Below, piece after piece: positions 5,685 through 57,572 of a stretch of DNA of 64,000 nt; position 1 is the stretch's first letter, and each line of letters starts with the position of its first letter. The stretch covers positions 776 to 64,775 of the forward strand of contig JAUPVQ010000012.1 in NCBI GenBank assembly GCA_030916965.1, given 5' to 3'. The stretch is from Patescibacteria group bacterium (GTDB lineage: Bacteria; Patescibacteriota; Minisyncoccia; Phycocordibacterales; UBA9973). The position numbers and the translations under genes were made by a program. The notes under the pieces are model-generated. The model had not been told where the DNA came from, made no database searches, and saw only the letters and a program-made list of their open reading frames with translations.

Positions 5685-5772
5685 ATTTATTATTTTACTT
5701 TCTTAAGTTAATAATGTTGCAAGGATATCGCTTGCATATACTACTACATTTCAAATAATAAAATATTTCAAA

Positions 5773-13204: not shown

Positions 13205-13205
13205 A

Positions 13206-14767: not shown

Positions 14768-14842
14768 ATACCAAATATAGCATATTTCCCTATCCTCACA
14801 AATATATAATTAAAAACGAGGCCCCTATAAAGTAAGCCTCAT

Positions 14843-15679
14843 TTAATAAAATAGTTTTCCATCTTTAAGAGCGTTAGTAAGTTGCCCATAATTTGAAAAT
14901 ATTCTTTGGTTGTTATTTAGAAAGATATTCGTATCTTGGCTAAATAGCCAAAATGGAATTCCAGCATTTTCTGCCATTTTCCCATCAAGTTCAATATCAT
15001 CACCTATAAGTATGACATTCTGCCGCGCGTAATCCATATCGATTTGGGGATTACATTGTAGCCATTGATCAATAGCTAAAGCAATCAAATAAACACTAGG
15101 TTTATTCTTACTTTTCCAATCCAAATCAAATTGTCCAAAACTGTCATCAGGCGTGATGCAAAGTAATGGTTTTTTTAGGTTGTGAAAATTAAAAACTTCA
15201 TAAATAAATTTTTCATAACCTGATGATACAATACCGAGATCTGTATTATAGAGCTCGAGGGTATTCCGAAATTCACGGAAACCTGTATATATTTCAGGCC
15301 AAACATTTCCATTTAAACAAATTGTTCCTATGCTATGTTTTAAATAATAAATATTTGTTTTTATAAATGATGAATAAATTTCAGGAGTAGAGTCAAGATT
15401 TGAATCCAAACTTAAATCTATATCATAATTTTCACAATAGACTTTAAAGTTTGGTAACAATTCTTTTATGGATGCTAGATGCATTACCACTTGTATTAAG
15501 GATCTACCATTATTACCGCCTTCATTTAGAAATCTTGCTAAGCCTTCATATCCAAACATTAAATTAATAGTGTTGTGATATGCTTGCTCATACAAATTAT
15601 CTTCATCGGTTTTGGCAATAGTTTTAGAAAAACTAGCCAATACTAACCTTTTTGGGTATTCTATTATCGAGTTTTTCAT
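14843..15679 (-). CDS. Hypothetical protein embedded in the pur operon, with a HAD-like C-terminal motif
   Basis: 278 aa. C-terminal VILIGDDIELDGKMAENAGIPF matches HAD motif IV (GDxxxD...A..AG). No canonical DxDGT motif I was seen. Confidence 0.45.
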   Translation of the reverse strand: MKNSIIEYPKRLVLASFSKTIAKTDEDNLYEQAYHNTINLMFGYEGLARFLNEGGNNGRSLIQVVMHLASIKELLPNFKVYCENYDIDLSLDSNLDSTPEIYSSFIKTNIYYLKHSIGTICLNGNVWPEIYTGFREFRNTLELYNTDLGIVSSGYEKFIYEVFNFHNLKKPLLCITPDDSFGQFDLDWKSKNKPSVYLIALAIDQWLQCNPQIDMDYARQNVILIGDDIELDGKMAENAGIPFWLFSQDTNIFLNNNQRIFSNYGQLTNALKDGKLFY

Positions 15680-15732
15680 GACTTTACCTTTTATTAAAGT
15701 CTACATTAAAACCCAGATTTGTCAAAAAATAA

Positions 15733-17028
15733 TTACAATTTTGTATGTAGAGCTCTCTTGCCTATATCATCCCTATAATAGATGCCTTGGTAGTAGATTT
15801 TTTGTATTGCTTTGTAAGCCTTGTCTAGAGCCTCTTGTAGTGTCACACCTGTAGCCGACACCCCAAGCACTCGCCCTCCATTTGTAACAACATTGCCGTC
15901 AGCGATTGCAGTACCTGCATGAAATATTACAATATCGGGGTCATTCTGTGCTTCATTGATACCTGTAATTACTTTCCCTTTTTCATAAGCATTTGGATAA
16001 CCTCCGGATGCCAAAACAATATTACAAGCAAATAAACTTTTCCATTTAATTTCGAATTTGAATAATTCCTTTTCTATACAGGCATCAAATAACTCAAAAA
16101 TATCAACATCGAGTAACCGCATATATGTTTGAACTTCTGGATCTCCGAAGCGAGAGTTGAACTCTATTATCTTTGGTCCTTCTGTTGTGATTATTAATCC
16201 CGGGTATAGTATCCCCTCAAATGGTAGACCGTCATGCTCCATATTTACCAATGTGGGAAGAATAATGTTGTTTTTGATTCCTGTCATCAAATCTTCTGTA
16301 ACAAATGGAACAGGAGCAATCGTCCCCATACCCCCAGTGTTTAATCCTGTATCTCCTATGCCAATCTTTTTGTGATCCTGAGAAGATGGAAATACTTTTG
16401 AAGAAACTCCATCTGAGATAGCGTGAGTGGAAATCTCTGGCCCTACAAGAAATTCTTCAATAACAATTTGTTTTCCACCATCACCAAAAATCTTTTTTAT
16501 TAAAATATTTTCTACGGCAATCTTTGCCTCTTCTCTTGTAAGACAAATAAGCACACCCTTTCCAAGAGCAAGTCCAGATGCCTTGACGACTACTGGTGTT
16601 GTATGAGTATCTATATAATTAAGTGCGTCATTGTATTGCTCATCTGTAAAAGTTTGGAATTTAGATGTTGGTAAATTGTGACGATGCATGAAATCTTTTG
16701 CAAATGCCTTGGACCATTCGAGCTTGCTTGCTTCTTTTGTTGGACCCCAAATACGCAGATTATTTTTACGAAATAGATCTACAATTCCAAGTGCTAATGG
16801 ATCGTCTGGTAGTGCTAGGGTCATGTAGATATTTTCTTTTTTAGCAAATTCCAACAAGGCTTCTATATCAATAGCTCTTATATCTATATTTGTACCCAAT
16901 TCTGCTGTACCAGCATTCCCAGGTGCAAAAAAAAGTATTGGCCTATGTTGTGATTGATCCAATTTCCATCCTATAGCATGTTCCCTGCCCCCACTACCAA
17001 TTATTAATACTTTTTTATTCTGCAACAT
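15733..17028 (-). CDS. purD: GAR synthetase (phosphoribosylamine-glycine ligase)
   Basis: 431 aa. KVLIIGSGGREHAIGWKL N-terminus, ATP-grasp core. Confidence 0.9.
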   Translation of the reverse strand: MLQNKKVLIIGSGGREHAIGWKLDQSQHRPILFFAPGNAGTAELGTNIDIRAIDIEALLEFAKKENIYMTLALPDDPLALGIVDLFRKNNLRIWGPTKEASKLEWSKAFAKDFMHRHNLPTSKFQTFTDEQYNDALNYIDTHTTPVVVKASGLALGKGVLICLTREEAKIAVENILIKKIFGDGGKQIVIEEFLVGPEISTHAISDGVSSKVFPSSQDHKKIGIGDTGLNTGGMGTIAPVPFVTEDLMTGIKNNIILPTLVNMEHDGLPFEGILYPGLIITTEGPKIIEFNSRFGDPEVQTYMRLLDVDIFELFDACIEKELFKFEIKWKSLFACNIVLASGGYPNAYEKGKVITGINEAQNDPDIVIFHAGTAIADGNVVTNGGRVLGVSATGVTLQEALDKAYKAIQKIYYQGIYYRDDIGKRALHTKL

Positions 17029-17080
17029 AATTTAAATTTACCATATTTCTACCCGTTTGGGTATTTTAGTATTGTACTCT

Positions 17081-17701
17081 TTAACTGTGAGTGATCTTTC
17101 CCAAAACTTCTACATAAAGCTCATTTTCTTTCTTTTTCAATCTAGCATATAGAGATTCTACTGTGTCGTTGTTCTCTACTTTTTCAAATGTTCTACCGAG
17201 TACAGGCCCGAAGTCAAAATCAAGTGTCAGAAAATGGACTGATGACCCAGCAAAAGTACTTTTGTTATTCAAAAAATTAGCAACTGCTTTATCGGCAAGC
17301 ATTCCTTTGTTCCACAAGGCGAGGGTTCCATCTGGATTTTGAACAGTTCCCTCAACTGTATCTGGGATCAAACCAGGGTGCAAATTTAAAATCTTGTTTG
17401 GGTAAGCTGTGATAACTTCATCAAGTATTATCTTTTTCCAACCTGCTAAACATATAAAATCGGGATTCAATTTCTGTAATAGCGCCAACAAATCTTCTTT
17501 GATCGGGCAAATTTCTATGGGGATATTATGTGCTTTCGCATGTTCGAGCCCCATTGCATCATCTCTATCTGAAATAACAGCACAAATACTTGCATTGATA
17601 GAATCTCTTTCAACGCCATCAATAATTGCCTTTAAATTACTCCCAGTTCCAGTATTGGAGATAAGAACAACTATTTGTAATTTACTCTTTTGGGACATCA
17701 T
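17081..17701 (-). CDS. purN: GAR formyltransferase-like
   Basis: 206 aa. N-terminal KLQIVVLISNTGTGSNLKAI and the formyl-transferase HPGL/ICLAGW region. Confidence 0.8.
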   Translation of the reverse strand: MMSQKSKLQIVVLISNTGTGSNLKAIIDGVERDSINASICAVISDRDDAMGLEHAKAHNIPIEICPIKEDLLALLQKLNPDFICLAGWKKIILDEVITAYPNKILNLHPGLIPDTVEGTVQNPDGTLALWNKGMLADKAVANFLNNKSTFAGSSVHFLTLDFDFGPVLGRTFEKVENNDTVESLYARLKKKENELYVEVLGKITHS

Positions 17702-19079
17702 AGCTTACCTCACTTTTACGCTCTAATATATCTATTGGATATTCACCTGTGAAAAATGATGTACAGAGATTCTCTTTTGGAAGACCTATAGATTTAATAA
17801 GCCCGTCAAGTGACAAGAAGTGCAGACTTGTAGCTCCTAGGAATTCACGGATTTCCTCTACTGTTTTGTGTGATGCAATAAGGTCACCCTGCTTCGGTGT
17901 ATCAATACCATAGAAATCCGGAAATCGAACCGGTGGAGATGAAATCAGGAAGTGTACTTCCTTGGCACCAGATTTAAATAAATTCTCTACTAATTTACGG
18001 CTAGTTGTACCACGCACTATTGAATCATCTATTACAATTACTCTTTTGCCTGAAAGAACCTCTGGCATTGGGATTAATTTGAGCGCTACAGAGTGCTCGC
18101 GGGATTCTTGGTCAGGCTCTATAAATGTACGATGTACGTAGCGATTCTTGATCAAGCCTAATTCAAGAGGAATTCCAGATTTCTGAGAGAAACCAATCGC
18201 CACAGGCATAGCAGTATCTGGAACAGGCACTACTATATCTGCTTTTAGTATAAACTCTTCTGCGAGCGTCATACCAGATTGCTTACGAACTTCGTATACA
18301 GATTTGCCACAGAGTACACTATCCGGTCTTGCAAAATAAACAAATTCAAAAATATCATGATGTGGAGTCGGCTCTGCGAGCTTCACACTCTTTAACCCAT
18401 CTTTATTTATGATGAGCATTTCTCCAGGCTCTACTTCACGCAAGAATTCTGCCCCTATAGTTTTGAGTGCACAAGTTTCCGACGCTACCACAAAACCATT
18501 TTTTATTTTACCTAAAGCAAGTGGTCGCATACCATAGGAATCTCGGATTACTATAAGTGTATCTTTTGTCATCATAGTGATAGAAAATGATCCCGTCATT
18601 AGTGGAAAAACATTTTTAACACTTTCTTCTATATTCAGACCCTCTGCCAGATACACTTTGATTGCATCTGCAATCAATTCAGAATCAGAACGGTTATCTT
18701 TGAGAGCATTTTTTGAAGAGAGAAATTCTTGTAGAGCTTTGACGCTTGGCAAATTACCATTGTGAGCAAGAGCAAAATCATTCTCATTATTTACTACTGG
18801 CTGTGCATGATCAAGCGCACCACCTCCAGATGTGGAATATCGATTATGGCCAATAGCAATATGGCCTACCAATGGCTTGATTGTATCTTCGGTATATACA
18901 CCCGATACAAGCCCTGCCCCTTTGTGAGTATATAAATTAGCTCCATCACTTGTCGTGATTCCACTTGCCTCTTGTCCGCGGTGCTGAAGAGCAAACAATC
19001 CAAAAAAAGCATGCCGAGCGACATTAATGCCCTCTGCATAAATCCCAAAAACAGCACATTTTTCATTTAAATTTTCCAT
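17682..19079 (-). CDS. purF: Amidophosphoribosyltransferase
   Basis: 465 aa. Short propeptide then the Ntn Cys (MENLNEKCAVFGIY), PRTase motif VIVIDDSIVRGTTS. Confidence 0.9.
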   Translation of the reverse strand: MENLNEKCAVFGIYAEGINVARHAFFGLFALQHRGQEASGITTSDGANLYTHKGAGLVSGVYTEDTIKPLVGHIAIGHNRYSTSGGGALDHAQPVVNNENDFALAHNGNLPSVKALQEFLSSKNALKDNRSDSELIADAIKVYLAEGLNIEESVKNVFPLMTGSFSITMMTKDTLIVIRDSYGMRPLALGKIKNGFVVASETCALKTIGAEFLREVEPGEMLIINKDGLKSVKLAEPTPHHDIFEFVYFARPDSVLCGKSVYEVRKQSGMTLAEEFILKADIVVPVPDTAMPVAIGFSQKSGIPLELGLIKNRYVHRTFIEPDQESREHSVALKLIPMPEVLSGKRVIVIDDSIVRGTTSRKLVENLFKSGAKEVHFLISSPPVRFPDFYGIDTPKQGDLIASHKTVEEIREFLGATSLHFLSLDGLIKSIGLPKENLCTSFFTGEYPIDILERKSEVSYDVPKE

Positions 19080-19098
19080 TTAGGTCTCTAGTATAACA

Positions 19099-19878
19099 TT
19101 ATTTCTTAAAATAATTTACTGCATTTTTGAAGATTATTAAGCCGGGGCCTTCAGTTGGAAGTTTTGATTTCTTTCTCTTTGCAATTTCTTTTTTCAACTG
19201 CGCGTCGGGTCTTTGCTGGTAGAACATTCCTCTTTCAGGATGTGGCATCATACCGAGGATTTTTCCATTTTCAGAAAGCACACCTCCTACATCGTGCATA
19301 GCACCATTTGGATTGGCTGGAAGATTTTGGAATTCACAGATCTCACCTTTTGTATATTGAAATGCGATTTGACCATTCTTCATCATTTTTTTGTATTCAT
19401 CTTCATTAATTATGTATCGGCCTTCGCCATGAGCAATAGGCAAAGAGATTTCTTTCACCCCTTTTAACCATGGGCTACTGCCAACACACTTCATATCTAC
19501 CCAGCGATCAATATACATACCGCTTGCATTATGAGCGAGTGCACCTGGTACTAATTCCAAATTTGTAATAATCTGGAATCCATTACAAATACCGATCACC
19601 AATGTATCGCGTGCGATAAATTCATCAAGCTCTTTTTGTAAATGATTATGGAATTTGTTGGCATAAGCCTTACCAGAGCCTGTGTCATCTCCATAAGAGA
19701 ATCCTCCAGGGAAAGCAAGGATATCATAATTTGAAAGCAATGCAGGATTAGCAATCAAATCATTGATATGAACAATGTCAGCCTGTCCCCCCGCCCATTC
19801 AAAAGCATACTTGGTCTCCTCTTCGCAATTGAGCCCATACCCCGACATCACTATAATTTTTGGCTGTTTATTTTTCAT
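19099..19878 (-). CDS. purQ: FGAM synthase glutaminase subunit
   Basis: 259 aa. KIIVMSGYGLNCEEE...LAFPGGFSYGDD...GICNGFQII...HPE. Confidence 0.88.
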   Translation of the reverse strand: MKNKQPKIIVMSGYGLNCEEETKYAFEWAGGQADIVHINDLIANPALLSNYDILAFPGGFSYGDDTGSGKAYANKFHNHLQKELDEFIARDTLVIGICNGFQIITNLELVPGALAHNASGMYIDRWVDMKCVGSSPWLKGVKEISLPIAHGEGRYIINEDEYKKMMKNGQIAFQYTKGEICEFQNLPANPNGAMHDVGGVLSENGKILGMMPHPERGMFYQQRPDAQLKKEIAKRKKSKLPTEGPGLIIFKNAVNYFKK

Positions 19879-19879
19879 A

Positions 19880-22843
19880 TTATTTAAAGCTATTTGAAAA
19901 TGAATTATGGAATTTGGAAATTGTATCGACTTTTGTATCTACAATTTTTTGAGTGCCATTTTTTATTAAAAATTCTTTTCCAGATTTAACTTGTCCAATT
20001 TTTGTATATGGAATATTCTTTATCAAACTTTCAAATGCTTTCACATTACCCTTTGCCACACTTACTACAATTCTACCCTGACTTTCAGAGAACAATTTCG
20101 CATCTATACTACTTGCAGTTCCAGCAAGCTTCTTAAGATCAACATTGATACCAAGCATTCCACCAACACTTGCTTTTGCCAGTGCTTGTGCAAGACCTCC
20201 AGAATTTACAGATATTGCACTCGCAACTATACCTTTGGCAATTACTTTTTCGAGAGCTTTGTAAATTTTTGTATTTTTCTTTGTATCTACTTTTGGTACA
20301 CTATTCCCAATTGCAATATTCTTGCCAATTTGTTTGTAGTATTCACTTGCACCAAGTTCATCGTGTGTTTCCCCCAATATATATATAGTATCACCTGCAA
20401 TTTTGAATTCTGGGGTTACAGCCTTGTTGAAATCTTTCATCACACCAATTGCTGAAATTAGTAGTGTAGGTGGGATAGAAATCGCTACAGAGTTACCATC
20501 CTTATCGTAACCTTTGAAATCATTGAACATACTATCCTTACCAGAAATAAATGGAGTACCATAATCAACCGCTGTGTCATAACAAGCACGGATCGCGTCT
20601 ACCAATTCCCCTAAACGAACCTCATCATAAGATGAGCACCAGCAAGTATTGTCGAGGATTGCCAAGTGGTCAAGTGTACCACCAGCACAGATTGCATTTC
20701 GCACTGCTGTATCAATAGCACAAGATGTCATGTCGTATGTATTGATATCACCATAAGATGGATACACACTTGATGTCACAACAACGGCACGATCGGATTT
20801 AAATACTGGTTTAATAACTTGGGCATCTGTGTTTATTAATCCGGCCCCTGATAAAGGTTTAACAACCGAAGAGGATTGCACTTCGTGATCGTATTGCTCA
20901 CTTATCCATCTATTACTTCCCAAGTTTGCAGAACCAACGAGAGTTAAAAATTCTTTTGTTCGATTGTAGCCATTGGGTAACTTTGGTTCATTAAAAATCT
21001 TCACATCTCTTTTTGAATGAAGTTGTCTTGCAGGGAGACCGTTATGCAAGAATTCCATCGGCATATCCATTATCACTTTTCCGTTATGTCGAACTACGCA
21101 ATTTTTATTTTTAGAGAATTCTCCAATCACAGAGGCCTGCACTCCGCGACTTTCCATTAATTTTTGGAATTCATCCCATTTATTTTTTGGCACGGCAAGT
21201 GTCATTCGCTCTTGTGATTCAGAGATCCAAATCTGCCACGGAGAAAGTCCGGGATATTTAAGCGGAACATTCTCTATATCTACAACTGCTCCTCCACACT
21301 CTTTGGCCATTTCTGCCACAGAGCACGATATTCCTCCTGCACCATTGTCTGTAATACTATTATACAAATTTCTGTCACGCGCTTCTTTTACAATTGCATC
21401 ACTTAATTTCTTTTGAGTTATTGGATCTCCAATCTGTACAGCTGTTGCTGGGCTTGAAGAATCAAGTACTACAGATGAAAATGTCGCTCCGTGCACACCA
21501 TCAAGCCCTACCTTGCCACCAACTACTACGATATAGTCACCAGCACGAGCCCTCTTCTCTGTAGCATTCTTGCCATTTACAATACGTGGGGAAAGTCCAA
21601 TAGTCCCCGCAAAGACTAGAGGTTTGCCACGGTAGCGATCATCAAATTTTGTAAATCCATTAATTGTTGGAATTCCGGAGCAGTTTCCTCCAGCGTTTAT
21701 ACCTTTTATCACCCCGTCAACAATACGAGCAGGTGGGAGCATTTTTTGTTTTAATTTTTTATCTTTGTATAGTTCCCTTTTATCATCTGGATATCCAAAA
21801 CAAAATCCATACACATTGGCAATCGGTTTAGCTCCCATACCAAACCCGATGGTATCGCGGTTCACTCCCACAATCCCAGTGATTGCTCCACCAAATGGAT
21901 CAAGTGCTGATGGACTGTTGTGCGTCTCCACTTTGTGACTTACCATATATGTATCATCAAAAACAATTCCTCCGGCATTGTCGGAGAAAACTGAAAGACA
22001 GAAATCATTTTTACCTTTAGCTTTCCTTATATCGTTTGTAGCCTTCTTTATATAACTTTTATACAAGCCATCTTTGATATCATCAATAGAGTTTGCAAAA
22101 ATTGTATGCTTGCAGTGCTCACTCCATGTTTGTGCAAGCGATTCCAATTCTATATCTGTCGGATTTCTTTTTATATTTTTAAAAAAGTTTTGAATTACTT
22201 TCATACTCTCGAGGTCCAGTGCAAGTGGTCCCCGACGATCACCGTCTGGATCTAGTATTCCCTCTTTCCCTGTCTTTATAAGCTCATCTGTGTTTGCATT
22301 TGATAGTGGTACTACTATGCAATCTTTCTTTTTTGGCAAGACTACAACAGGCACATATAGTGGCAACCCTTTATTTTTTAATTCATTTGAGACTGGGAAA
22401 ATTGTAGCTCTTTCTATCAATGGATTGTGTAATGAGAATGCAATTTTGTTTACATCCTCTTTTGAGATTGTACCTCCAATTAGAAAAACTTTGGAAGTAT
22501 ATACAGCTTCAACATCAGCAAAAGGCCTTTTTAATAAATCACTCACACTCTCCATTACTGTATGTGCCACATTGTCTGTCACTCCAGGAGCAAAACCAAT
22601 TTCAAGTATATATGAAAAATTTGCCAGATTTGGCAATGAGTTTATGGAGTAGTTTTCAAGTTTTTTATTTATGAGAGATTGACCTGTCAAATTTAATTGC
22701 TCTGGTGTTAAGCTAGCATTAACGAGGTATGAGTCAATTACAGAAACATTTGCCACCTTGCCATATAGCCCTAAATTGTTAAAAGGCAATATCTTGCCTT
22801 TTCCATTTTGTTCATTAGGAACTACATAAATCCTTGAAATCAT
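19880..22843 (-). CDS. purL: FGAM synthase subunit PurL. At 987 aa it is larger than small PurL, with an N-terminal PurS-like extension.
   Basis: AIR-synthase-related N and C domains repeated (DxGGG-type motifs NGAGGIS / SGKDS), translationally coupled to purQ. Confidence 0.88.
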   Translation of the reverse strand: MISRIYVVPNEQNGKGKILPFNNLGLYGKVANVSVIDSYLVNASLTPEQLNLTGQSLINKKLENYSINSLPNLANFSYILEIGFAPGVTDNVAHTVMESVSDLLKRPFADVEAVYTSKVFLIGGTISKEDVNKIAFSLHNPLIERATIFPVSNELKNKGLPLYVPVVVLPKKKDCIVVPLSNANTDELIKTGKEGILDPDGDRRGPLALDLESMKVIQNFFKNIKRNPTDIELESLAQTWSEHCKHTIFANSIDDIKDGLYKSYIKKATNDIRKAKGKNDFCLSVFSDNAGGIVFDDTYMVSHKVETHNSPSALDPFGGAITGIVGVNRDTIGFGMGAKPIANVYGFCFGYPDDKRELYKDKKLKQKMLPPARIVDGVIKGINAGGNCSGIPTINGFTKFDDRYRGKPLVFAGTIGLSPRIVNGKNATEKRARAGDYIVVVGGKVGLDGVHGATFSSVVLDSSSPATAVQIGDPITQKKLSDAIVKEARDRNLYNSITDNGAGGISCSVAEMAKECGGAVVDIENVPLKYPGLSPWQIWISESQERMTLAVPKNKWDEFQKLMESRGVQASVIGEFSKNKNCVVRHNGKVIMDMPMEFLHNGLPARQLHSKRDVKIFNEPKLPNGYNRTKEFLTLVGSANLGSNRWISEQYDHEVQSSSVVKPLSGAGLINTDAQVIKPVFKSDRAVVVTSSVYPSYGDINTYDMTSCAIDTAVRNAICAGGTLDHLAILDNTCWCSSYDEVRLGELVDAIRACYDTAVDYGTPFISGKDSMFNDFKGYDKDGNSVAISIPPTLLISAIGVMKDFNKAVTPEFKIAGDTIYILGETHDELGASEYYKQIGKNIAIGNSVPKVDTKKNTKIYKALEKVIAKGIVASAISVNSGGLAQALAKASVGGMLGINVDLKKLAGTASSIDAKLFSESQGRIVVSVAKGNVKAFESLIKNIPYTKIGQVKSGKEFLIKNGTQKIVDTKVDTISKFHNSFSNSFK

Positions 22844-26680: not shown

Positions 26681-27163
26681 TCATTTTATCTTTAGTTTTT
26701 CAACAAATTGATCAAGGATTACAATTGGAACATTTGTACGTTTTAATAAGAGCGATAGATACTTGCGATTCGGCGATACAATTTCAATGTGAATATTTTT
26801 CTCTTTCAAAAACTCAACAATACAGTGGTAATCACCATCTCCAGAAACAAGGACTACGCTTTCTAGCTTATTTTCATAAAAATCTTTTGCAATAGTTAGT
26901 ATCAATTCTCCGTCTACATTTCCTTTAGTTTTGCCCTCTTTGCTAGTAATTGTAGGCTTGAAAGAAATATCATACCCAATATTCTGTAAGTAATTATAAT
27001 ATTCGAAGTTATCGGGTAAAAGTCCCATAAAAAGTATGGCTCGATTTACGCCAAATTTATCACGGAGCCACGACCGAAAAGATTTATAATCAAGCTCCCA
27101 GCCACTTTGCTTGACGCCGAATTTTAAATTTGAAGAGTCTATGTATGCAGTAGAATTTTTCAT
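26681..27163 (-). CDS. NYN-domain (LabA-like) predicted ribonuclease
   Basis: 160 aa. AILFMGL...VVLVSGDGDY...IEIVS acidic-residue pattern of NYN/PIN-like nucleases. Confidence 0.7.
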   Translation of the reverse strand: MKNSTAYIDSSNLKFGVKQSGWELDYKSFRSWLRDKFGVNRAILFMGLLPDNFEYYNYLQNIGYDISFKPTITSKEGKTKGNVDGELILTIAKDFYENKLESVVLVSGDGDYHCIVEFLKEKNIHIEIVSPNRKYLSLLLKRTNVPIVILDQFVEKLKIK

Positions 27164-27184
27164 TGCATTTTAAAAAACTAATAA

Positions 27185-28561
27185 TTAGGAACAATCTATA
27201 ATGATTGTATCCCCTGCCATTGGGCTCTCTGTTTCTATTCCTAAATTATCTTTGAGTTTTTGTGCGAGATACAGTGCTGCCTTTGGCTCGCCCATTACAG
27301 TGAAAACTTTCTTCACTGTCTTTGCAGTGTCTGCGACGAATTCCACCAAGTGATCGGAATCTTTATGGCCAGAATATCCGCTAATCATTTCTACATGAGC
27401 ATGAATAGGTATCTCCTCATTCATAATATGAACTTTCTTTACTCCCTCTTGAATTAATCTACCCAATGTTCCCACTGATTGGTATCCAATTAGTAGTATT
27501 GTATCATTTGGGTTTGGAAGATAATTCTTCTCGTGGTGGAGGATTCTGCCACCGTTACTCATACCACTACCTGCCATAATTATCTTTGGACTTGGGACAG
27601 AAAGTATGGCTTTGGATTCTTGTGTTTCTTCTGTCATTTTGAGCCCTGGAAAGTTGAAGATATCATCTCCACTTGCTATGATATCACGAGCATTTTGGTT
27701 GAAATATTTGCTATTAGTTTTGTAAATTCGTGTTAATTTAATAGCCAATGGTGAATCGAGAAATATCGGCATAAAAGGAATTGTTTTGGCCTCTACCATT
27801 TCATTGATTTCAAAAATCAATTCTTGAGTACGCTCAAGGGAAAATACCGGTATCATAAGTGTCCCTGCTCTTTTGTAATTCTCATTGATTACCTTTGCCA
27901 ATTTTTCCTTTCTCTCATTGCGATCCTCGTGATTGCGGTCTCCGTACACGGATTCCATTATCATATAATCTGCATCTGTTACCTTGTCAGTGTCTGGTAG
28001 TATTGGTGATGGAGAATTACCAAGATCTCCTGTAAAAACTATTTTCTTGCCATTATAGACTATCTCTACCATCCCAGAGCCCAATATATGTCCAGTGTCT
28101 TTGAAAGAGAATTGAAATCCATGATCGACGTTGATTACTTGATGATACTCTACTCCCTCCCAGAGTTCCATAGCTCTCTTTATATTTTCGGCAGAATAAA
28201 TATCTTTTAAATGATGCTCGTTGTCGCGCGATAATATATGAGCAGTATCCTCGAGCATAATTTGAACAATATCACGAGTTGGAATTGTAGAAATTATTCT
28301 ACCTTTGAATCCGTCTTGTATTATTTTGGGTATACGACCAATATGGTCTATGTGCCCGTGTGTTATAAAAAGAATATCAATTGTACTAGGGTCATAAGTA
28401 AACGGGGCCCAATTGAGCTCATCTGCAATCCTCTCTCCTTGGACAAGTCCACAATCAATGAGGAATTTCTTGCCATTCCCTTCGAGTAAAAAATTAGCAC
28501 CGGTCACAGTACCGGCACCATTTGCAAAAGTAATCTTTAGTTCTGTATCTTTAATTTCCAT
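27185..28561 (-). CDS. MBL-fold metallo-hydrolase of the beta-CASP RNA-metabolising family
   Basis: 458 aa. HxHxDH motif ILFITHGHIDHIGRIP. C-terminal beta-CASP / RMMBL-like region. Confidence 0.75.
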   Translation of the reverse strand: MEIKDTELKITFANGAGTVTGANFLLEGNGKKFLIDCGLVQGERIADELNWAPFTYDPSTIDILFITHGHIDHIGRIPKIIQDGFKGRIISTIPTRDIVQIMLEDTAHILSRDNEHHLKDIYSAENIKRAMELWEGVEYHQVINVDHGFQFSFKDTGHILGSGMVEIVYNGKKIVFTGDLGNSPSPILPDTDKVTDADYMIMESVYGDRNHEDRNERKEKLAKVINENYKRAGTLMIPVFSLERTQELIFEINEMVEAKTIPFMPIFLDSPLAIKLTRIYKTNSKYFNQNARDIIASGDDIFNFPGLKMTEETQESKAILSVPSPKIIMAGSGMSNGGRILHHEKNYLPNPNDTILLIGYQSVGTLGRLIQEGVKKVHIMNEEIPIHAHVEMISGYSGHKDSDHLVEFVADTAKTVKKVFTVMGEPKAALYLAQKLKDNLGIETESPMAGDTIIIDCS

Positions 28562-29866: not shown

Positions 29867-30334
29867 CTACTTTTTGTGTTCTGCGTAAATAAAATCAGTA
29901 TCAATTTTTTGATACTCAAAAATTTCGTTAGATTCAAAAAATCTTTTAACCTCTATTTCACCATTCTCTATTGAATCTGAGGCGTGCACAATATTTGATT
30001 GTGTAGAAAGTGAGAAGTCTCCACGGATAGTACCCGCATTTGCCTCCCAAGCTTTAGTAGGTCCAACAAGCAATCTTAGAGCTGAGATTGTGTTTATACC
30101 ATCAACTGCCATTACAACCACAGGACTTGCTTTCATAAAATCACGAATACCTGGGAAAAATGGCTTGTCTTTTATGTGTGCATAGTGCTCTTCTAATACA
30201 GCATCTTGTATGCTGATCATTTTCATTCCAACTATTTTTAATCCTTTTTTTTCTATACGTGAAATAATTTCACCGATTAAATTTCGTTGCACTGCGTCCG
30301 GCTTGATAATAATCAAAGATTTTTCGTAAGTCAT
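29867..30334 (-). CDS. ndk: Nucleoside diphosphate kinase
   Basis: 155 aa. LIIIKPDAVQRNLIGEIISRIEKKGLKIVGMKM...NIVHASDS (active-site His). Confidence 0.9.
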   Translation of the reverse strand: MTYEKSLIIIKPDAVQRNLIGEIISRIEKKGLKIVGMKMISIQDAVLEEHYAHIKDKPFFPGIRDFMKASPVVVMAVDGINTISALRLLVGPTKAWEANAGTIRGDFSLSTQSNIVHASDSIENGEIEVKRFFESNEIFEYQKIDTDFIYAEHKK

Positions 30335-30406: not shown

Positions 30407-33130
30407 TTATTGCCTATATTTATCCATTATTTCGTTCTCCACCTCTTCACGATCACGGCCATACTTGAGATATGACAATTCCTTAAGAGCTTGGACCATT
30501 TCCATATTACCTTTTGGTGGAGCAAATGTTGCTATATTGAATGGCTTGGTTGGTTGGCCATTGATGAGCATACTTACATAAGCATTGCGGTTGTCTATCT
30601 TCATAATATCTTTGGCTGTAAAGACTGGTTTGAATTTACTCTCGAGGAATTCAGCATCTTCAGCACCTACGCGAAATACTGCGAGCGAGCCAACGTTACC
30701 AAACACAGCGTTCTTAATATTATCTTCTAATTGGGAAATATATTGGTGTGCAACAGTAAGTGATAGTCGGTACTTACGAGCTTCGGAAAGAATTGATTCA
30801 ATCGAGTCAGTCGTAACATTCTGGAACTCATCGATATACAGGAAGAAGTCTTCCATCTTTTGCCCATACATATCTACACGAGAAAGTGCGGCCATCTGAA
30901 TTTTCCCTACTAGCAACATACCAATCAGATTAGCATTGATCTCACCAAGACGGCCTTTTGATAAATTCACTAAAAGAATTTTCTTATTATCCATAATCTC
31001 ACGGAAGTCAAAAACGGATTTCTCTTGCAAGACTACCGGGCGCATAATGTCATTGGAAATAAAATTGTCGAATTTGGAAGTTAGATACGGCACGAAGTTG
31101 GCAAGAGACTGATCCCCTGTTGTTTGTTCAGCGTTCATCCAGAATTGTTTAATAATTGGGTTTTTACATTTGGATAATTTCATATCGCGAAATGCTTTGT
31201 CGGAAAGGACACGAGAGATCTCCAATAGAGTACATCCACTCTCTGGGTCCTCCATTATCAGGAAAGCTGAGTTCTTGAAATACTGCTCAAACATAGGACC
31301 ACCACTTGTCTTCATATCAAAAAGCTTATTGAATATTCCCATCAATTCATTTACCACAAAAGTCTTTTGCTCAGGGTATTTAGGGTCAAACTGTAGCATA
31401 TTGAGTCCCATAGGGCGCGCAGTATATGCTGGGTCAAAGTAGATAACATCATCTATGCGCTCCTTTGGCACATAGGAAAGAATATCTTGGATGTCGGTAC
31501 CATGTGGGTCGATATAGCATACACCGTGGCCTGCCGCTATGTCCTGAGCAATCATGTTCTTCATGATTGTTGTCTTACCTGTACCTGTCTGACCTATAAC
31601 ATAGAAATGGCGCATTCGATCCTCTGGAGCAAAATGGATCTGTGTATCCTTGCCGCGATAATCATTGTGCCCAATCACAATACCCTCTCCACCCATTTCA
31701 ATAGGAGCAGGTGCAATCCCAGCTTTTGCTTGTTTGAGTTGAGGTGAATCAGAAATACCATATGGGAAGTGAAATATAGTTGCAAGTTCTTTTAAATTCA
31801 GTGGCATTTTCATTTCGTCGTCAAAAGTACGATAAGAGAAATTGTGAACCAAATGTGCAAGCTCTGCCCCAACTGGTCTCTCAAACAATAATCCATTTCG
31901 ATCTGCTTCTGTGAACTGGTTGAATGATGACTCTAAGTCTGAGAGAATTTGGCGTGCTCTATCTGCTGTACCTGCCGATGTGACTATACGGATATTTGTC
32001 GCCATAATTGTACTCTTCAATTTCTCTGTGATTGCCTCGACTGCGCGGTCGTTTGTCTTTTTATCTTCTTTATGTTTGCTTGCTCCAAAAAGTATTTCTT
32101 TTGCAAGTTTGCCAAACTCTTTGCCGACTTGGCGTACCATAGAGCTCGCTGTGCGCACAGACATACCACTCTTTACATCCTCTAGGATTATCCTGTATTT
32201 AGCAATTATGTCGTCATCCTCTGGGCAGATACTAAATTGAATACTTGCACCTTCGCCCTCCTTTTGCATCTTTGTAAAAACATTGAGGATAATATTGAGT
32301 GGGTCATGCTCTATGTTGTCGTAGAGTTTGATTGGGTACACATCGTACTTTGTTAATTTTGCCATAGATGCTGCTATCGCACCATTTTCTGTAAAAATAT
32401 TATAGTCATCAGGTAGTTCTACAATCTTTGCATGTGCGTGCACACCTAAAATTTGTTTCTCAAAAAGATCAGCTTTGTTGCTTGGGACCGCTGTATAAAA
32501 AATAAACTGGTCACTATTATTTGAAAGTGCGATTTCTAATGTGAAATGATTGCGTTCATAGTTGTGACGCCCTTCACCTACTGAATGCATACCTGCATAG
32601 AATTGCTCCATTGCAGAAAGCAATTCTTTCAAGCCCTTTTTATTGTCTTCGGTAGGTTCTGGGAGTGAGATCTCGAACAATTTCATATCCAAAGATTTAA
32701 ATAATGGTGTACCCTCTTTAAGACCAGGAACTCTTTTTGCACTATGTAAATACTGCACAAGAAACCGGTGGAAGTCATCGTCTAGGTGTGGGTTATTCAT
32801 TTTGGCTACCAATGCGAGAGTATTGCTTATACCCTTCTCAAGTAATATTCCTAGCAATTCTTCCATTTTGTGATCGTGGTTTTCTGGCTTTAGTCGCAAT
32901 ACTAGTGCCTCGGCTTCGTGATCTTTCAGCACAGCACTCTGATGCATAACCTCGGTAGGATCTATCTTGCGATATTCATGGATTGCATCATGAGCCAATT
33001 GTTCTCGCGTAATATCAGAACCACTCTCAATAATTTTTTGCTCACGCTCTTTTAACTGCGCGCGCAAATACGATAGCTCTTCTTGAGCATCTTTGAATTT
33101 CGGAGCATTATTAAAATTGAAACTTTCCAT
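30407..33130 (-). CDS. Large soluble FtsK/HerA-superfamily ATPase, VirD4/TraG (T4 coupling protein)-like, with a ~500-aa N-terminal region of unknown function
   Basis: 907 aa, no TM helices. Walker A YVIGQTGTGKTT...CYIDPHGTD. C-terminal TraG-D_C-like IDEFQN...ARKYRLSLTVAHQYISQL. Confidence 0.65.
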   Translation of the reverse strand: MESFNFNNAPKFKDAQEELSYLRAQLKEREQKIIESGSDITREQLAHDAIHEYRKIDPTEVMHQSAVLKDHEAEALVLRLKPENHDHKMEELLGILLEKGISNTLALVAKMNNPHLDDDFHRFLVQYLHSAKRVPGLKEGTPLFKSLDMKLFEISLPEPTEDNKKGLKELLSAMEQFYAGMHSVGEGRHNYERNHFTLEIALSNNSDQFIFYTAVPSNKADLFEKQILGVHAHAKIVELPDDYNIFTENGAIAASMAKLTKYDVYPIKLYDNIEHDPLNIILNVFTKMQKEGEGASIQFSICPEDDDIIAKYRIILEDVKSGMSVRTASSMVRQVGKEFGKLAKEILFGASKHKEDKKTNDRAVEAITEKLKSTIMATNIRIVTSAGTADRARQILSDLESSFNQFTEADRNGLLFERPVGAELAHLVHNFSYRTFDDEMKMPLNLKELATIFHFPYGISDSPQLKQAKAGIAPAPIEMGGEGIVIGHNDYRGKDTQIHFAPEDRMRHFYVIGQTGTGKTTIMKNMIAQDIAAGHGVCYIDPHGTDIQDILSYVPKERIDDVIYFDPAYTARPMGLNMLQFDPKYPEQKTFVVNELMGIFNKLFDMKTSGGPMFEQYFKNSAFLIMEDPESGCTLLEISRVLSDKAFRDMKLSKCKNPIIKQFWMNAEQTTGDQSLANFVPYLTSKFDNFISNDIMRPVVLQEKSVFDFREIMDNKKILLVNLSKGRLGEINANLIGMLLVGKIQMAALSRVDMYGQKMEDFFLYIDEFQNVTTDSIESILSEARKYRLSLTVAHQYISQLEDNIKNAVFGNVGSLAVFRVGAEDAEFLESKFKPVFTAKDIMKIDNRNAYVSMLINGQPTKPFNIATFAPPKGNMEMVQALKELSYLKYGRDREEVENEIMDKYRQ

Positions 33131-33137: not shown

Positions 33138-33905
33138 TTATAACATAGTTAAAATTTCTGGCTCGTCTTTTGTGATTAGAATTGTGTGTTCGAAGTGTGC
33201 AGCCTTGGATCCATCAGCTGTGATTATTGTATAGCCGTCATTTAGTACTTCGATATTTGCTTTGCCATTTGTCAGCATTGGCTCAATTGCAATTATCATT
33301 CCTGGAATTAATTTCACGCCTTTACCCGCCTTCCCAAAATTGGGAATATAGGGATCTTCATGAATTTCTATCCCCACGCCATGGCCTGAAAGCTCGCGAA
33401 CGATACCATACTTTTTATTTACAAATGATTCAATAGCGTAACCAATATCCCCTGTTGTGTTACCATTCTTTGCTGCCCAGATTCCCACCATCATCGCCTC
33501 TTTTGTATCATCGATAAGTTTTTGATCCTTCTGTGAAATTTTCCCAACAGGTACAGTAATAGCGTGATCTGTAAAGTAACCCTTATGTTTGATACCAAGA
33601 TCTATACAAATAATATCCCCTTCTTTTAAAACTCTCCTTTTGCTAGGTATACCGTGAACAACTTCACTATTTGTAGATGTACACAAAGAGGCTGGGAATG
33701 CCTTGTGATGACCCTCTGGCTTGTAATTAAGGAATGCTGGGGTATCTCCACCCTCTTTGATCAGTTTATAGGCATATTCATCGAGCTCTGCTGTTGTGAC
33801 CCCTGGAGCCACCATTTTACCCACTTTGGCCAATATAGTAGCCAACCGCTTGCCTCCTTCCCGGATAATCTCAATCTCCTCTTTAGTTTTAATATAAATA
33901 GCCAT
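33138..33905 (-). CDS. map: Methionine aminopeptidase type I
   Basis: 255 aa, pita-bread fold. Metal ligands in DIICIDLG / GHGVGIEIHE / IEPM. Confidence 0.9.
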   Translation of the reverse strand: MAIYIKTKEEIEIIREGGKRLATILAKVGKMVAPGVTTAELDEYAYKLIKEGGDTPAFLNYKPEGHHKAFPASLCTSTNSEVVHGIPSKRRVLKEGDIICIDLGIKHKGYFTDHAITVPVGKISQKDQKLIDDTKEAMMVGIWAAKNGNTTGDIGYAIESFVNKKYGIVRELSGHGVGIEIHEDPYIPNFGKAGKGVKLIPGMIIAIEPMLTNGKANIEVLNDGYTIITADGSKAAHFEHTILITKDEPEILTML

Positions 33906-33949: not shown

Positions 33950-34636
33950 TTATTTAATTACAGTCCCTATAAACGCTTGGCCATCGAGATAGTTTTTGAG
34001 GTTCTCTAAGTTTTTGCCATTCATTATGGCTACTTCTATTCCCTTCTCTTCAGCTTTTATGGCTGCTATTGGGTCGAATGGTGCGTTGAGACCTGGGTTC
34101 CACTCTGTAGGTAATATCTTACGAAAGTCTGCCCAATTTGAGTGCTCTATCTTTACTGCGTCAGGAAAAGATTTCGGGTCTTTGTCGTAAGCATAATCTA
34201 TATTTGAAAGATTGATGACCTTCTTTGCACCAAGAGTGATTGCAGTGTGTATAGCAGCCAAATCGCTACTGTTTCCCGGCTTCCATCCACCACCAAGCAT
34301 AACTTGCCTATCTGTAGTTGGTATCATATCAGGATCAAGAATTATTTTGTCATAAGCAAGCTCACCAAAAGCAACTCGTAATAGTTCAGCATTCAAACGA
34401 GTGCTTGCAATACCTATCCAATCGAGATCTGTATTTGATGGAGTAGTAATTATTTTTATTGCATCGAGATAATTTCGAGCAACTTTTCCACCACCAGTTA
34501 TGATTCCAAATTTATATCCTTTTGCAACATATTCTTTTATTAGCGAAACAAAATCAGGAATGAAATTTGTATCTATTTCATTAGGTGCAATCAAAGACCC
34601 ACCCAAAGAGATGATGATGTGTTTGTTGTCTTCCAT
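33950..34636 (-). CDS. pyrH: UMP kinase, archaeal-type (amino-acid kinase family)
   Basis: 228 aa. IIISLGGSLI...FGIITGGGKVARNYL...GIASTRLNAELL...MLGGGWKPGNSSD...IDYAYDKDP...FDPIAAIKAEEKGIEVAIMN parallels archaeal UMPK block for block. Confidence 0.8.
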   Translation of the reverse strand: MEDNKHIIISLGGSLIAPNEIDTNFIPDFVSLIKEYVAKGYKFGIITGGGKVARNYLDAIKIITTPSNTDLDWIGIASTRLNAELLRVAFGELAYDKIILDPDMIPTTDRQVMLGGGWKPGNSSDLAAIHTAITLGAKKVINLSNIDYAYDKDPKSFPDAVKIEHSNWADFRKILPTEWNPGLNAPFDPIAAIKAEEKGIEVAIMNGKNLENLKNYLDGQAFIGTVIK

Positions 34637-38016: not shown

Positions 38017-38592
38017 TTACGCAGCCTTTTTACCTTGCTTACGACGAACAACTTCATCGTCATAATGGAATCCTTTACCTTTGTATGGTTCTGGTTTCTT
38101 AAGGGCTCTTACACTTGCTGCGAATTGACCAACCATTTCTTTGTCGATACCTGATACTGTGATGTTGTTCTTTTCAGCTTTTACTTCAAGTCCAGTTGGG
38201 ATTTCAACATTTACAGGGTGAGAGAATCCTAATGCGAGCTTCAGTACTGTACCTGCAACTTCTGATTTGAATCCAACTCCTTCTAGTATCAATTTCTTTG
38301 AATATCCTGTTGAAACACCGTTTACCATGTTCTTTACATGAGATGCGTATGTTCCCCACAATGCACGGTTCTTTTTGTCATCAGCATTCTTTGGCACAAA
38401 TGTGATCTCATTGCCTGTTATAGCAATTGTAACATTACCTGGAAACTCGCGTGTTAGAGTACCCTTTGGGCCTTTCACAGTAAAAGTCTTGTCTGAAAGC
38501 TTTGCCTCCACTCCTGCTGTTATTAAAATTGTTTGTTTTCCTATACGTGACATAAAATTATTCTTACCACATTGTAAAGAGGACTTCGCCAC
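38017..38592 (-). CDS. rplF: Ribosomal protein uL6
   Basis: Two-domain L6. The likely true start is MSRIGKQ (about 38553). Confidence 0.9.
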   Translation of the reverse strand: MAKSSLQCGKNNFMSRIGKQTILITAGVEAKLSDKTFTVKGPKGTLTREFPGNVTIAITGNEITFVPKNADDKKNRALWGTYASHVKNMVNGVSTGYSKKLILEGVGFKSEVAGTVLKLALGFSHPVNVEIPTGLEVKAEKNNITVSGIDKEMVGQFAASVRALKKPEPYKGKGFHYDDEVVRRKQGKKAA

Positions 38593-38950
38593 CGACGAGC
38601 TCCTTGCGTGCTTCGCTATCTGTTAAAATTCCTTTTGGTGTTGTAAGAACCATAATACCTTGACCATGCTTCACTCTTCGGATCCCCTTTACTCCTGTAT
38701 ACATACGTCGAGAAGATTTTGAAACACGCTTAACATCCTGAACCTTTGGGCCATTTGCTGTGTAGATAAGACCGATTTCCAATACTGGGAAATTCTTTTT
38801 CATTTTCTTTGTAACGCTTGAGATGAATTTGTGGCGAAGTAGACATTCAGCAATAGCCATCTTGATCTTTGAAAATGGAACAACAACAACCTCGTGTTCA
38901 CGAGAGTTTGCATTCTTTATCATTTGTATCATGTTTGCGATTTGGTCCAT
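38564..38950 (-). CDS. rpsH: Ribosomal protein uS8
   Basis: 128 aa. MDQIANMIQMIKNA... Confidence 0.9.
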   Translation of the reverse strand: MDQIANMIQMIKNANSREHEVVVVPFSKIKMAIAECLLRHKFISSVTKKMKKNFPVLEIGLIYTANGPKVQDVKRVSKSSRRMYTGVKGIRRVKHGQGIMVLTTPKGILTDSEARKELVGGEVLFTMW

Positions 38951-39363: not shown

Positions 39364-39732
39364 TTAGTGAGTCATTAAGACGAATTTGCCGTCTTTGATT
39401 TCATAATTTTTCTCCACAAAGATTCTCTCCCCTTCATCAACGATAATATGAATTCTATCGTTTATTAGTTTTCGCCGTAAATTCATATTGGGGTTTTCGA
39501 CTTTCCCTATCACAATATTATTCACTTTGTCGAAAATTTTGGTATGTATAATCAAATTCTCATCCAACTCTTTAGGTAAAAAATGAAATGGATTCGAAAG
39601 TAGTTGTTTTTTTCTTTGGTTTTCCTTGTAAAATAAATAGGCAAAAATCAAAGCAATGATAGAAACACCGAAGAAAAAATAATTAGGGATGTCCAAGTTG
39701 GACAATTCGTGGATTAAATTTTTTAGATTCAT
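39364..39732 (-). CDS. Hypothetical membrane-anchored protein (122 aa) inserted between rpsN and rplE
   Basis: One N-terminal TM helix, then a soluble domain. Flanked on both sides by terminator-like hairpins. Confidence 0.45.
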   Translation of the reverse strand: MNLKNLIHELSNLDIPNYFFFGVSIIALIFAYLFYKENQRKKQLLSNPFHFLPKELDENLIIHTKIFDKVNNIVIGKVENPNMNLRRKLINDRIHIIVDEGERIFVEKNYEIKDGKFVLMTH

Positions 39733-39821: not shown

Positions 39822-40361
39822 TTACTTTTTGAATGGAATACCTATGAGTTTGAAGAATTCTAATGCTTCCTTTTTTGTCTTTGCGCTTGTTACTATTGTA
39901 ACTGCCATACCGAATACATCTTTTAGTTCTTCATCTCCTGCTTCTGGGAAGATTGTGTGCTCTTTGATACTCATTGTTAGATTTCCGATATTGTCTACAA
40001 TTTTTGTCTCTATACCACGGAAGTCTTTTGTACGAGGGATTGCAACGTTGATTAGCTTATCTAGGAATGAGTACATACGCGCACCACGTAGTGTAACCAT
40101 TACCCCTACTGGATCCCCTTCACGGATTTTGAAGCTCGCGATAGATTTCTTTGCACTTCGTAGAGCTGGCTTCTGACCTGTGATCTTTGCAAGGCGTCCT
40201 ACAACAAAGTCGTTGCGATTCTTGTCGCGCTTTACAGCACTACCTGTGCCTGTAGCTACAACTACCTTTACCAAATGAGGTGCAGACATCAAATTCTTGT
40301 ATTTGAAGTCGCCTTTCATTGTTGTGTATGCTTTTTTCTCTTTTTGTTTTGTTGTTTCCAT
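39822..40361 (-). CDS. rplE: Ribosomal protein uL5
   Basis: 179 aa. L5 family throughout. Confidence 0.9.
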   Translation of the reverse strand: METTKQKEKKAYTTMKGDFKYKNLMSAPHLVKVVVATGTGSAVKRDKNRNDFVVGRLAKITGQKPALRSAKKSIASFKIREGDPVGVMVTLRGARMYSFLDKLINVAIPRTKDFRGIETKIVDNIGNLTMSIKEHTIFPEAGDEELKDVFGMAVTIVTSAKTKKEALEFFKLIGIPFKK

Positions 40362-55280: not shown

Positions 55281-55285
55281 ATTAA

Positions 55286-56338: not shown

Positions 56339-56346
56339 ACTTAATA

Positions 56347-57470: not shown

Positions 57471-57483
57471 AAATTTTTATTTA

Positions 57484-57572
57484 TCCTGTCCACAGGGTAG
57501 TGAAAGTTGGCATAGCGCTTTGCGCGCTCCGATTAGTATCGGAGCAATGCCAACTTCTACTACCCTGTCCAA
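57484..57572. repeat. ~90-bp compound palindromic structured element
   Basis: Arms CCACAGGGTAGTGAAAGTTGGCAT / ATGCCAACTTCTACTACCCTGTCC (about 21/24 bp complementary) enclose two short hairpins (AGCGCtttGCGCGCT and CCGATtagtATCGG). Confidence 0.55.

Follow-up and report, generated by a model that had tools for sequence, protein, structure and literature searches.

A soluble, partner-fused ATPase of Patescibacteria joins a predicted VirB4-type N-terminal fold to a motor of VirD4-like sequence

Why would a Patescibacterial chromosome keep, among housekeeping genes, an ATPase that resembles the coupling proteins of type IV secretion systems (T4SSs)? The question is raised by a stretch of 64,000 nucleotides from a Patescibacteria group bacterium (contig JAUPVQ010000012.1, assembly GCA_030916965.1), here called the window. 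Patescibacteria account for a large share of uncultivated bacterial diversity. The minus strand of the window, on which all of its features described below lie, holds at 30407..33130 a complete open reading frame (ORF) with an ATG start, whose 907 residues comprise a DUF8128 domain and an ATPase similar to type IV coupling proteins (T4CPs), an arrangement referred to as the long soluble form. The first-pass annotation, made from the sequence alone, had read the product as an orphan VirD4/TraG-type ATPase of the FtsK-HerA superfamily, devoid of a membrane anchor and carrying some 500 N-terminal residues of unknown function, and had offered as possible roles the core of a defence or DNA-processing system or a lineage-specific essential translocase. 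Translation bears out the frame with its Walker A, Walker B and T4CP-type motifs, and no transmembrane (TM) helix is present, the highest Kyte-Doolittle mean over 19 residues being 1.42.

The P-loop ATPase domain spans residues 481–872 (30515..31690) and belongs to the VirD4/VirB4 clade of the FtsK-HerA superfamily. Walker A, GQTGTGKT, occupies residues 513–520 (31571..31594) and Walker B, FLYIDE, residues 763–768 (30827..30844); between the two, a helical insertion (residues ~586–716; 30983..31375) sits at the position of the T4CP all-alpha domain. The T4CP-type motif EARKYRLSLTVAHQYISQL follows at residues 783–801 (30728..30784), under a TraG-D_C match at residues 764–827, and the stretch at residues 782–801 reads SEARKYRLSLTVAHQYISQL. 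The protein ends in a helical tail (residues 873–907 and the stop codon, 30407..30514; AlphaFold2 helices at 876–906) that is 65% identical among long forms. In 50 diverse family members, sequences 30–61% identical, G513, G516 and K519 of Walker A and D767 and E768 of Walker B are invariant, and likewise E783, R785, K786, L789, Q796 and Q800. Because K519, D767, E768, R785/K786 and Q796/Q800 persist unchanged down to 30% identity, NTPase activity is predicted, and its sequence marks the window protein as a P-loop NTPase of the VirB4/VirD4 clade with an intact catalytic site.

Profile searches relate the ATPase half to T4CPs at low scores. In the local Pfam copy, matches to DUF87, T4SS-DNA_transf, TrwB_AAD_bind and TraG-D_C are restricted to residues ~498–827; Pfam and NCBIfam matches taken together are weak, partial and confined to residues ~480–860, and the families they point to are T4CPs and HerA-type proteins. 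The matches to T4SS-DNA_transf (25.9 bits against a cut-off of 20.1), TrwB_AAD_bind (24.7 against 20.5) and TraG-D_C (25.1 against 22) are partial and pass the gathering threshold narrowly. None of the curated T4CP cut-offs of NCBIfam (TraD, VirD4-like CD1115, MobC, TrbC) is reached, all scores falling far below, and the best T4CP-type match there, SXT_TraD, has 51.4 bits against a cut-off of 366. FtsK_SpoIIIE of Pfam stays below threshold (15.9 against 24), HerA_C gives only E=0.064, and the VirB4 profile TIGR00929 gives 17 bits where 643 are required. TrwB_AAD_bind and TraG-D_C are matched by 48 of the 50 diverse members, CagE_TrbE_VirB, the VirB4 family of Pfam, by none of them. A family profile run against PDB sequences retrieves TrwB (5.8e-7) and DotL (1.7e-5) and no VirB4 chain, and the single protein yields marginal matches only (DotL at 0.009). 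One member of the family alignment (A1) also has a match, at 1.8e-5, to the Pfam family T4SS_pilin.

The N-terminal half departs from known T4CPs, in that a domain of ~330 residues resembling the N-terminal domain (NTD) of VirB4 precedes the ATPase. This domain, DUF8128 (PF26449), covers residues 148–480 (31691..32689), has an alpha/beta structure and contains a disordered Lys/Glu-rich loop at residues 334–357. The local Pfam copy, which does not include the PF26449 model, gives no match for the first ~480–500 residues; the assignment is the precomputed annotation of an identical protein (P0001) and of all listed homologues. A full-text literature search for DUF8128 by name returned nothing. 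The AlphaFold2 model of the full-length protein, built on a 51-sequence alignment, is confident, with a mean predicted local distance difference test (pLDDT) score of 82.8, and a separate domain model of residues 138–482 reaches a pLDDT of 84 and a predicted template modelling score of 0.83. Foldseek aligns the full model collinearly with TrwK/VirB4 over 830–902 columns, at E-values down to 1.6e-14, and over shorter stretches of about 400–740 columns with TrwB, Cag-beta, DotL and HerA; the structural neighbours of the ATPase include the DNA translocases HerA, DptH/DndH and FtsK. The predicted fold of DUF8128 is that of the VirB4 NTD. The ATPase half is T4CP-like by sequence and, by structure, VirB4-like and TrwB-like equally. 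With a VirB4-NTD-like domain in its N-terminal half, the whole protein therefore resembles VirB4 as much as VirD4, and a VirB4 domain plan is combined with a motor of VirD4-like sequence in a hybrid architecture.

The plan of an NTD followed by a RecA-like ATPase is shared with TrwK of R388, Thermoanaerobacter VirB4 and the CD1110/TrsE-type proteins. The window protein differs from them in having no significant VirB4 profile match and in being encoded outside any T4SS cluster, with housekeeping neighbours only, and most Patescibacteria carry a separate canonical VirB4. In the R388 T4SS, the VirB4 NTD is wrapped by VirB3 and binds VirB8 tails, and VirB4-VirB4 dimers form entirely via their NTDs (PMC9259494). 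Profile and structure matches thus both uphold the first assignment of the C-terminal half to the VirD4/TraG type within the FtsK-HerA superfamily. For the ~500-residue N-terminal region, the lack of a local Pfam match stands, but the region of unknown function now resolves into a VirB4-NTD-like domain preceded by a fused partner module.

That module is encoded separately in sister proteins. Residues 1–135 (32726..33130) form an all-helical N-module (AlphaFold2 helices at 15–129) with no Pfam match, followed by a linker at residues 136–147 (32690..32725) where sister forms carry a single N-terminal TM helix; pLDDT drops below 50 at residues 131–135, the border between module and linker. The sister proteins are ~800 residues long, 52–54% identical to the window protein and without residues 1–140. 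One strongly hydrophobic TM helix, at residues ~8–30 of these short forms, stands immediately before DUF8128, and the sequence after it aligns with the window protein from residue ~138 onwards. Each sister ATPase gene is preceded by an ORF of 121–129 residues that overlaps its start by 8 nucleotides, and this small partner is homologous end to end to residues 11–134 of the window protein (BLASTP E=3e-13; L086:7643-8008, L084:7619-8008). Since the sister forms have both a separate homologous partner gene and a TM helix, the window protein is a small helical partner fused to the ATPase, in which a short linker stands in place of the TM helix.

A TM-like segment upstream of Walker A is found in 66 of the 116 representatives with a canonical Walker A, and in a rough neighbour-joining tree the soluble long forms and the TM-anchored short forms are sister groups. 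The conserved core of the family corresponds to residues ~145–905, the first ~140 residues being specific to one clade. The standard family architecture consists of one N-terminal TM helix, DUF8128 and a T4CP-like ATPase. The fusion arose in the Nomurabacteria/Paceibacteria lineage with a precise deletion of the TM helix, yielding a soluble protein, and the absence of a TM anchor is a derived state in an otherwise membrane-anchored family. A small ORF also lies upstream of Saccharibacterial members; it has no detectable similarity to the window N-module (E=17 and 0.11), and the arrangement alone is common to both. As a separate observation, a cluster of a methyltransferase, a LexA-S24-fused methyltransferase and HEPN_AbiU2 lies a few kb upstream of one short TM-anchored form (L084, positions 1-5800); it resembles a restriction-modification or abortive-infection island and is not seen at other loci.

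The gene itself occupies a fixed position. It starts 7 nucleotides after map (methionine aminopeptidase, 33138..33905; Peptidase_M24, 5.4e-47), the last canonical gene of the rps/rpl-secY-adk-map operon, and is followed 72 nucleotides downstream, on the same strand, by ndk (29867..30334; NDK, 5.6e-49). The map-ATPase-ndk order first noted in the window is kept in about 80 species-level loci, as part of the longer order secY-adk-AA_kinase-map-ATPase-ndk-beta-CASP. Among 75 related loci with enough flank, map is directly upstream in 58 and ndk lies at most 1.5 kb downstream in 66. The identity of the ATPase follows that of SecY and Map genome by genome, and the same holds for a homologue at 55% identity. 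In comparisons of the window with two related genomes, the ATPase is 76–78% identical, SecY 70–76%, Map 67–72%, S8 and L15 65–72% and IF3 77–88%. Across 43 long forms, mean identity to the window protein is 78% in the ATPase half (81% in the helical insertion), 53% in DUF8128 and 48% in the N-module. No terminator-like site is found on the minus strand between 29000 and 37000, from secY to ndk, where terminator and promoter scans are at background level. Because synteny is kept, identity tracks that of the neighbours and the coding strand has no terminator, the gene is vertically inherited, strongly constrained and as conserved as SecY. It is probably co-transcribed with the ribosomal-protein/secY/adk/map operon.

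No T4SS, relaxase, integrase or defence system was found in the 64-kb window (ORFs of at least 300 residues and immediate neighbours scanned), which confirms the early description of a housekeeping neighbourhood free of conjugation or secretion genes. The ORFs scanned encode RecG, FtsH, PurB/C/M/L/F/D, cohesin, fn3 and G8 surface proteins, HAD, beta-CASP, NYN and AA_kinase proteins and Adk. T4SS or relaxase genes are likewise missing beside the ATPase gene in about 85 related loci. What was found is not a member of a well-characterised family with T4SS or relaxase genes for neighbours.

Several features of the flanks can be recorded here. The gene between adk and map (33950-34636) is of the amino-acid-kinase family, UMP-kinase-like, and is kept in most related loci; several relatives have one or two ORFs of 560–585 residues, with no Pfam match, between this gene and map. 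Downstream of the ATPase gene lies a variable block of nucleotide and RNA metabolism genes: in the window, a beta-CASP/RMMBL (RNase J-like) gene and an NYN-domain gene after ndk (26681-28561); in relatives (L001, L002), one to three CYTH-domain genes and an HD-domain gene interleaved around ndk. Inside the ribosomal-protein operon, a 122-residue ORF with a hydrophobic N-terminus (39364-39732) is flanked by ORFs at 39822-40361 and 38564-38950, probably L5 and S8 by position in related loci.

The family to which the window protein belongs is huge and almost restricted to Patescibacteria. The identical protein P0001 is on record as hypothetical from a Patescibacteria metagenome-assembled genome, and more than 100 clusters at 90% identity are 75–90% identical to the window protein over its full length. 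A scan of one genome per species found a relative in at least 587 genomes, and those listed all belong to Patescibacteria (Nomurabacteria, Paceibacteria, Minisyncoccia and others). Among 1.84 billion cluster representatives, searched exhaustively, 20,896 matched, 5,382 of them at E<=1e-30, which sets the family size, counted in 50%-identity clusters at that threshold, at a minimum of 5,382. Length varies within the family: members of 1,500–2,000 residues with large C-terminal extensions after the ATPase include P0171, P0177, P0178, P0180, P0183, P0186 and P0191, and Saccharibacterial members have C-terminal extensions of about 150–300 residues.

Mobile elements contribute almost nothing to this distribution. 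The DUF8128 region matched none of 50,697 phage records and only one of 72,556 plasmids; relatives are encoded on 12 of 2.9 million IMG/VR contigs, and 11 of the 12 match the ATPase half alone. The plasmid homologue, full-length, TM-anchored and frameshifted, lies on an 898-kb Pontibacillus megaplasmid. At a distance of 7–13 kb from it is a T4SS cluster of the monoderm type, with genes for a pilin-like protein (Mbov_0395), a VirB4-like ATPase of the CD1110 family and a large M23 peptidase. This copy, as one example only, ties the DUF8128 ATPase family to a T4SS context. On the same replicon (Pontibacillus sp. ALD_SL1, NZ_CP062975.1, 322-370 kb; L088/L092), the T4SS cluster with its pilin-like protein resembles Patescibacterial T4SSs and adjoins flagellar genes. 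The DUF8128 ATPase and the large subunit of a class I ribonucleotide reductase are each split into several ORFs there, which could be true pseudogenes or assembly frameshift errors.

Published surveys had already met this population of proteins. VirB4 was reported in 2,417 of 3,035 Patescibacterial genomes (80%) and 5,713 VirD4-type T4CP homologues in 2,918 of the 3,035 (96%, about 2 per genome), only 148 of the 5,713 lying near virB4 (Quinonero-Coronel et al. 2025, PMC12102498). By our arithmetic (1-0.2^2 = 0.96), these counts fit one VirB4 and two T4CP-like genes per genome at about 80% detection, and hence the presence of both kinds together in nearly all genomes. The DUF8128 ATPases are almost certainly the same proteins as these T4CP homologues. 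With a family of at least 5,382 clusters, homologues in nearly every genome surveyed and an N-domain catalogued as DUF8128, the label of orphan does not hold.

Functional data come from Southlakia. Its T4SS cluster is essential and has no recognisable coupling protein or relaxase (Wang et al. 2023, PMC10633639). SEML1_0142, a TraM-recognition-domain ATPase of 1019 residues with a P-loop from residue ~381, scored ES/ES/ES in transposon sequencing (Tn-seq); SEML1_0141, a 139-residue ORF directly upstream, scored GD/ES/ES; the paralogue SEML1_0293, of 921 residues, scored NE/NE/NE (PMC10633639). Saccharibacterial DUF8128 ATPases occur in the locus order infC-YifB-small ORF-ATPase-gyrB-gyrA, which is the arrangement of SEML1_0137-0146, and a second Saccharibacterial group occurs in a topA-sigma-ATPase context matching SEML1_0293. 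From synteny, length and annotation, we infer that SEML1_0142 and SEML1_0293 are members of the DUF8128 ATPase family; by synteny, one family paralogue is essential in Southlakia. The window protein is 36% identical to a 0142-type protein (P0490) over 792 residues (E=3e-147) and about 32–34% identical to the 0293-type group (P0262/P0375). The Southlakia and Saccharibacterial counterparts are TM-anchored, 920–1150 residues long, with C-terminal extensions, and lie at gyrBA or topA-sigma loci; unlike them, the window protein is soluble, fused to its partner and linked to map and ndk. Of the roles first offered, a lineage-specific essential translocase fits best, given conservation at the level of SecY and a Southlakia family paralogue essential by Tn-seq.

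The role to which we lean, tentatively and with a chance that we put slightly below even, is that of the missing coupling and translocation motor of the Patescibacterial T4SS. The ATPase would assemble as a ring-shaped, ATP-driven translocase, and its VirB4-like N-domain, by analogy with R388 VirB4, would dock on the inner-membrane platform (VirB4, TrsD, VirB3, VirB6, VirB8) of the chromosomal, relaxase-less T4SS. Once docked, it would couple and translocate substrates, supplying a motor for which the T4SS gene cluster has no gene of its own; the fused helical module may be an adaptor or regulator built into the protein, in principle like the small helical partners that T4CPs have (CagZ of Cag-beta, for instance). 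We propose this role because of the VirB4-like architecture, the T4CP sequence signal, the intact motifs and the core-gene status of the protein. A link to the T4SS in particular is suggested by the Pontibacillus copy near a T4SS cluster, the Southlakia T4SS without a coupling protein and the genome frequencies of VirB4 and T4CP homologues, and the ES scores of SEML1_0142 and of the small ORF preceding it point the same way.

Several observations weigh against such a role. No T4SS gene stands beside the ATPase gene in the window or in the about 85 related loci, T4CP homologues near virB4 are rare in the published survey (148/5,713, PMC12102498), and a protein without a membrane anchor is unexpected as a coupling protein. 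The recurrent neighbours of the family are DNA and nucleotide metabolism genes (ndk/adk, gyrBA, topA/dprA, nrdDG), with which a T4SS-independent role on nucleic acids fits equally well. The docking mechanism is drawn by likeness to R388 VirB4. Identity to the essential-type paralogue (33–35%) is close to that to the dispensable type (32%), the neighbour-joining tree has no deep resolution, and the SEML1_0293-type DUF8128 paralogue is dispensable although the Southlakia T4SS is essential. Finally, the family membership of SEML1_0142 rests on synteny, length and annotation.

Less likely, in our estimate, is a T4SS-independent housekeeping translocase: a motor of VirB4/VirD4 descent would have been exapted for essential work on nucleic acids in the cytoplasm. 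Such work might be the processing or import of DNA that the cell scavenges, chromosome segregation, support of decatenation, or some other translocation of DNA or RNA. A housekeeping role would explain both expression with the translation and secretion operon and the dispensability of a membrane anchor, and the protein is indeed soluble, with its gene inside the ribosomal-protein/secY/adk/map operon and conserved like SecY. The family also repeatedly adjoins ndk/adk/AA-kinase/CYTH/HD, gyrB-gyrA, topA-dprA and nrdDG, although these neighbourhoods are generic housekeeping ones and differ between lineages. Family genes are almost never beside virB4, and exaptation of t4cp genes 'cannot be ruled out' in the words of the survey's authors (PMC12102498). 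HerA, DptH/DndH and FtsK are among the nearest structural neighbours, yet no DNA-binding domain is detected, and for VirB4-type N-domains no function is known other than docking and oligomerisation in T4SSs. Most family members, the closest sister forms included, keep the TM anchor, which argues for a membrane-associated ancestral role. For the soluble, partner-fused form in particular, it is likewise less likely, in our estimate, that it no longer takes part in a secretion machine and that the hybrid motor has been domesticated as an essential cytoplasmic translocase, co-expressed with the ribosome/SecY/nucleotide-kinase operon; such a protein might handle scavenged or chromosomal nucleic acid in organisms living on host nucleotides.

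It is improbable that the protein is instead a VirB4 paralogue rather than a coupling protein, that is, an assembly or pilus-biogenesis ATPase, or an 'outer' subunit heterodimerising with canonical VirB4 through NTD-NTD contacts, which would energise assembly of the machine and recruit no substrates. The arrangement of NTD and C-terminal domain as in VirB4, the NTD-borne dimers of R388 VirB4 (PMC9259494) and the VirB2-like pilins that Patescibacterial T4SSs unusually encode would suit this explanation, but the sequence profiles described above prefer T4CPs (TIGR00929 far below its cut-off, no VirB4 chain from the PDB, no CagE_TrbE_VirB match in the family), and the T4SS clusters already encode a genuine VirB4.

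An anti-phage defence core, as first suggested, or what is left of an integrated conjugative or mobile element is very unlikely: the fixed position, vertical inheritance across about 80 species and ribosomal-protein-level conservation are the opposite of a patchy, fast-evolving pattern, the GC content of the gene is the same as that of its flanks, phage and plasmid records hold next to no DUF8128, and the window has no partner defence genes, relaxase, integrase or T4SS. The match of the ATPase to PADLOC MADS mad8 (9.7e-14) covers the P-loop region only, and the only PADLOC matches among the neighbours are generic ones, to NYN and, for RecG, to helicases; a defence system was rejected with no system components nearby, and a mobile-element remnant on vertical inheritance, fixed synteny and the lack of mobility genes in the window. 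FtsK was rejected as well, with the motor profile below cut-off and neither a multi-pass TM domain nor a gamma (KOPS-binding) domain present. HerA-NurA was rejected with an N-domain that matches the VirB4 NTD and not the HAS barrel of HerA, and with no NurA, Sir2 or Dnd partner gene.

Set beside VirD4, TrwB, TraD, TraG, DotL and Cag-beta, the window protein lacks the N-terminal two-helix TM domain in addition to carrying the VirB4-NTD-like domain. Its gene also differs from those of T4CPs in being chromosomal, vertically inherited, conserved like ribosomal proteins and without relaxase or T4SS linkage, the Bacillota megaplasmid copy being the exception in the family.

Elsewhere in the window, two gene groups deserve mention. 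A contiguous cluster for de novo purine synthesis at 10887-22843 encodes a purB-like lyase, SAICAR synthetase, two AIR-synthase-related proteins, one of them a 987-residue FGAM-synthase-like protein, amidophosphoribosyltransferase and GAR synthetase; its presence is notable in Patescibacteria, which are usually described as unable to make nucleotides de novo. At 53814-63938, a run of large proteins, probably for surface or adhesion functions, includes a 1460-residue G8 protein, a 488-residue cohesin-domain protein, a 453-residue fn3/Big_6 protein and two ORFs (350 and 284 residues) with no Pfam match.

The wide occurrence of T4CP-like genes in Patescibacteria, at a distance from virB4, has been published, and DUF8128 has a catalogue entry. 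To judge from the searchable literature, four findings are new: the predicted VirB4-NTD fold of DUF8128, from which the hybrid VirB4/VirD4 architecture follows; the fusion with the partner, in which the TM helix was precisely lost; the fixed place at the end of the ribosomal-protein operon with SecY-level conservation; and the connection, through synteny, between the family and a gene that is essential in Southlakia. The searchable text of PMC12102498 and PMC10633639 describes neither the N-domain fold nor the fusion nor the operon position.

The near-universal T4CP homologues of Patescibacteria thus form a distinct architectural class, in which a VirB4-type docking domain is predicted to precede a VirD4-type motor, and this bears on the kinship of the VirB4 and VirD4 families. 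To our knowledge, no T4SS before the chromosomal, relaxase-less one of Patescibacteria had been shown to be essential for the growth of its owner, and we know of no genetically tractable member of Patescibacteria other than Southlakia. Testable hypotheses follow, namely the docking of DUF8128 on VirB4, VirB3 or VirB8 and the small helical partner as an adaptor. If the motor is independent of the T4SS, it would represent a new essential housekeeping function, and a domesticated translocase would, if true, give the T4SS ATPase clade a new cellular role and Patescibacteria a core gene specific to them.

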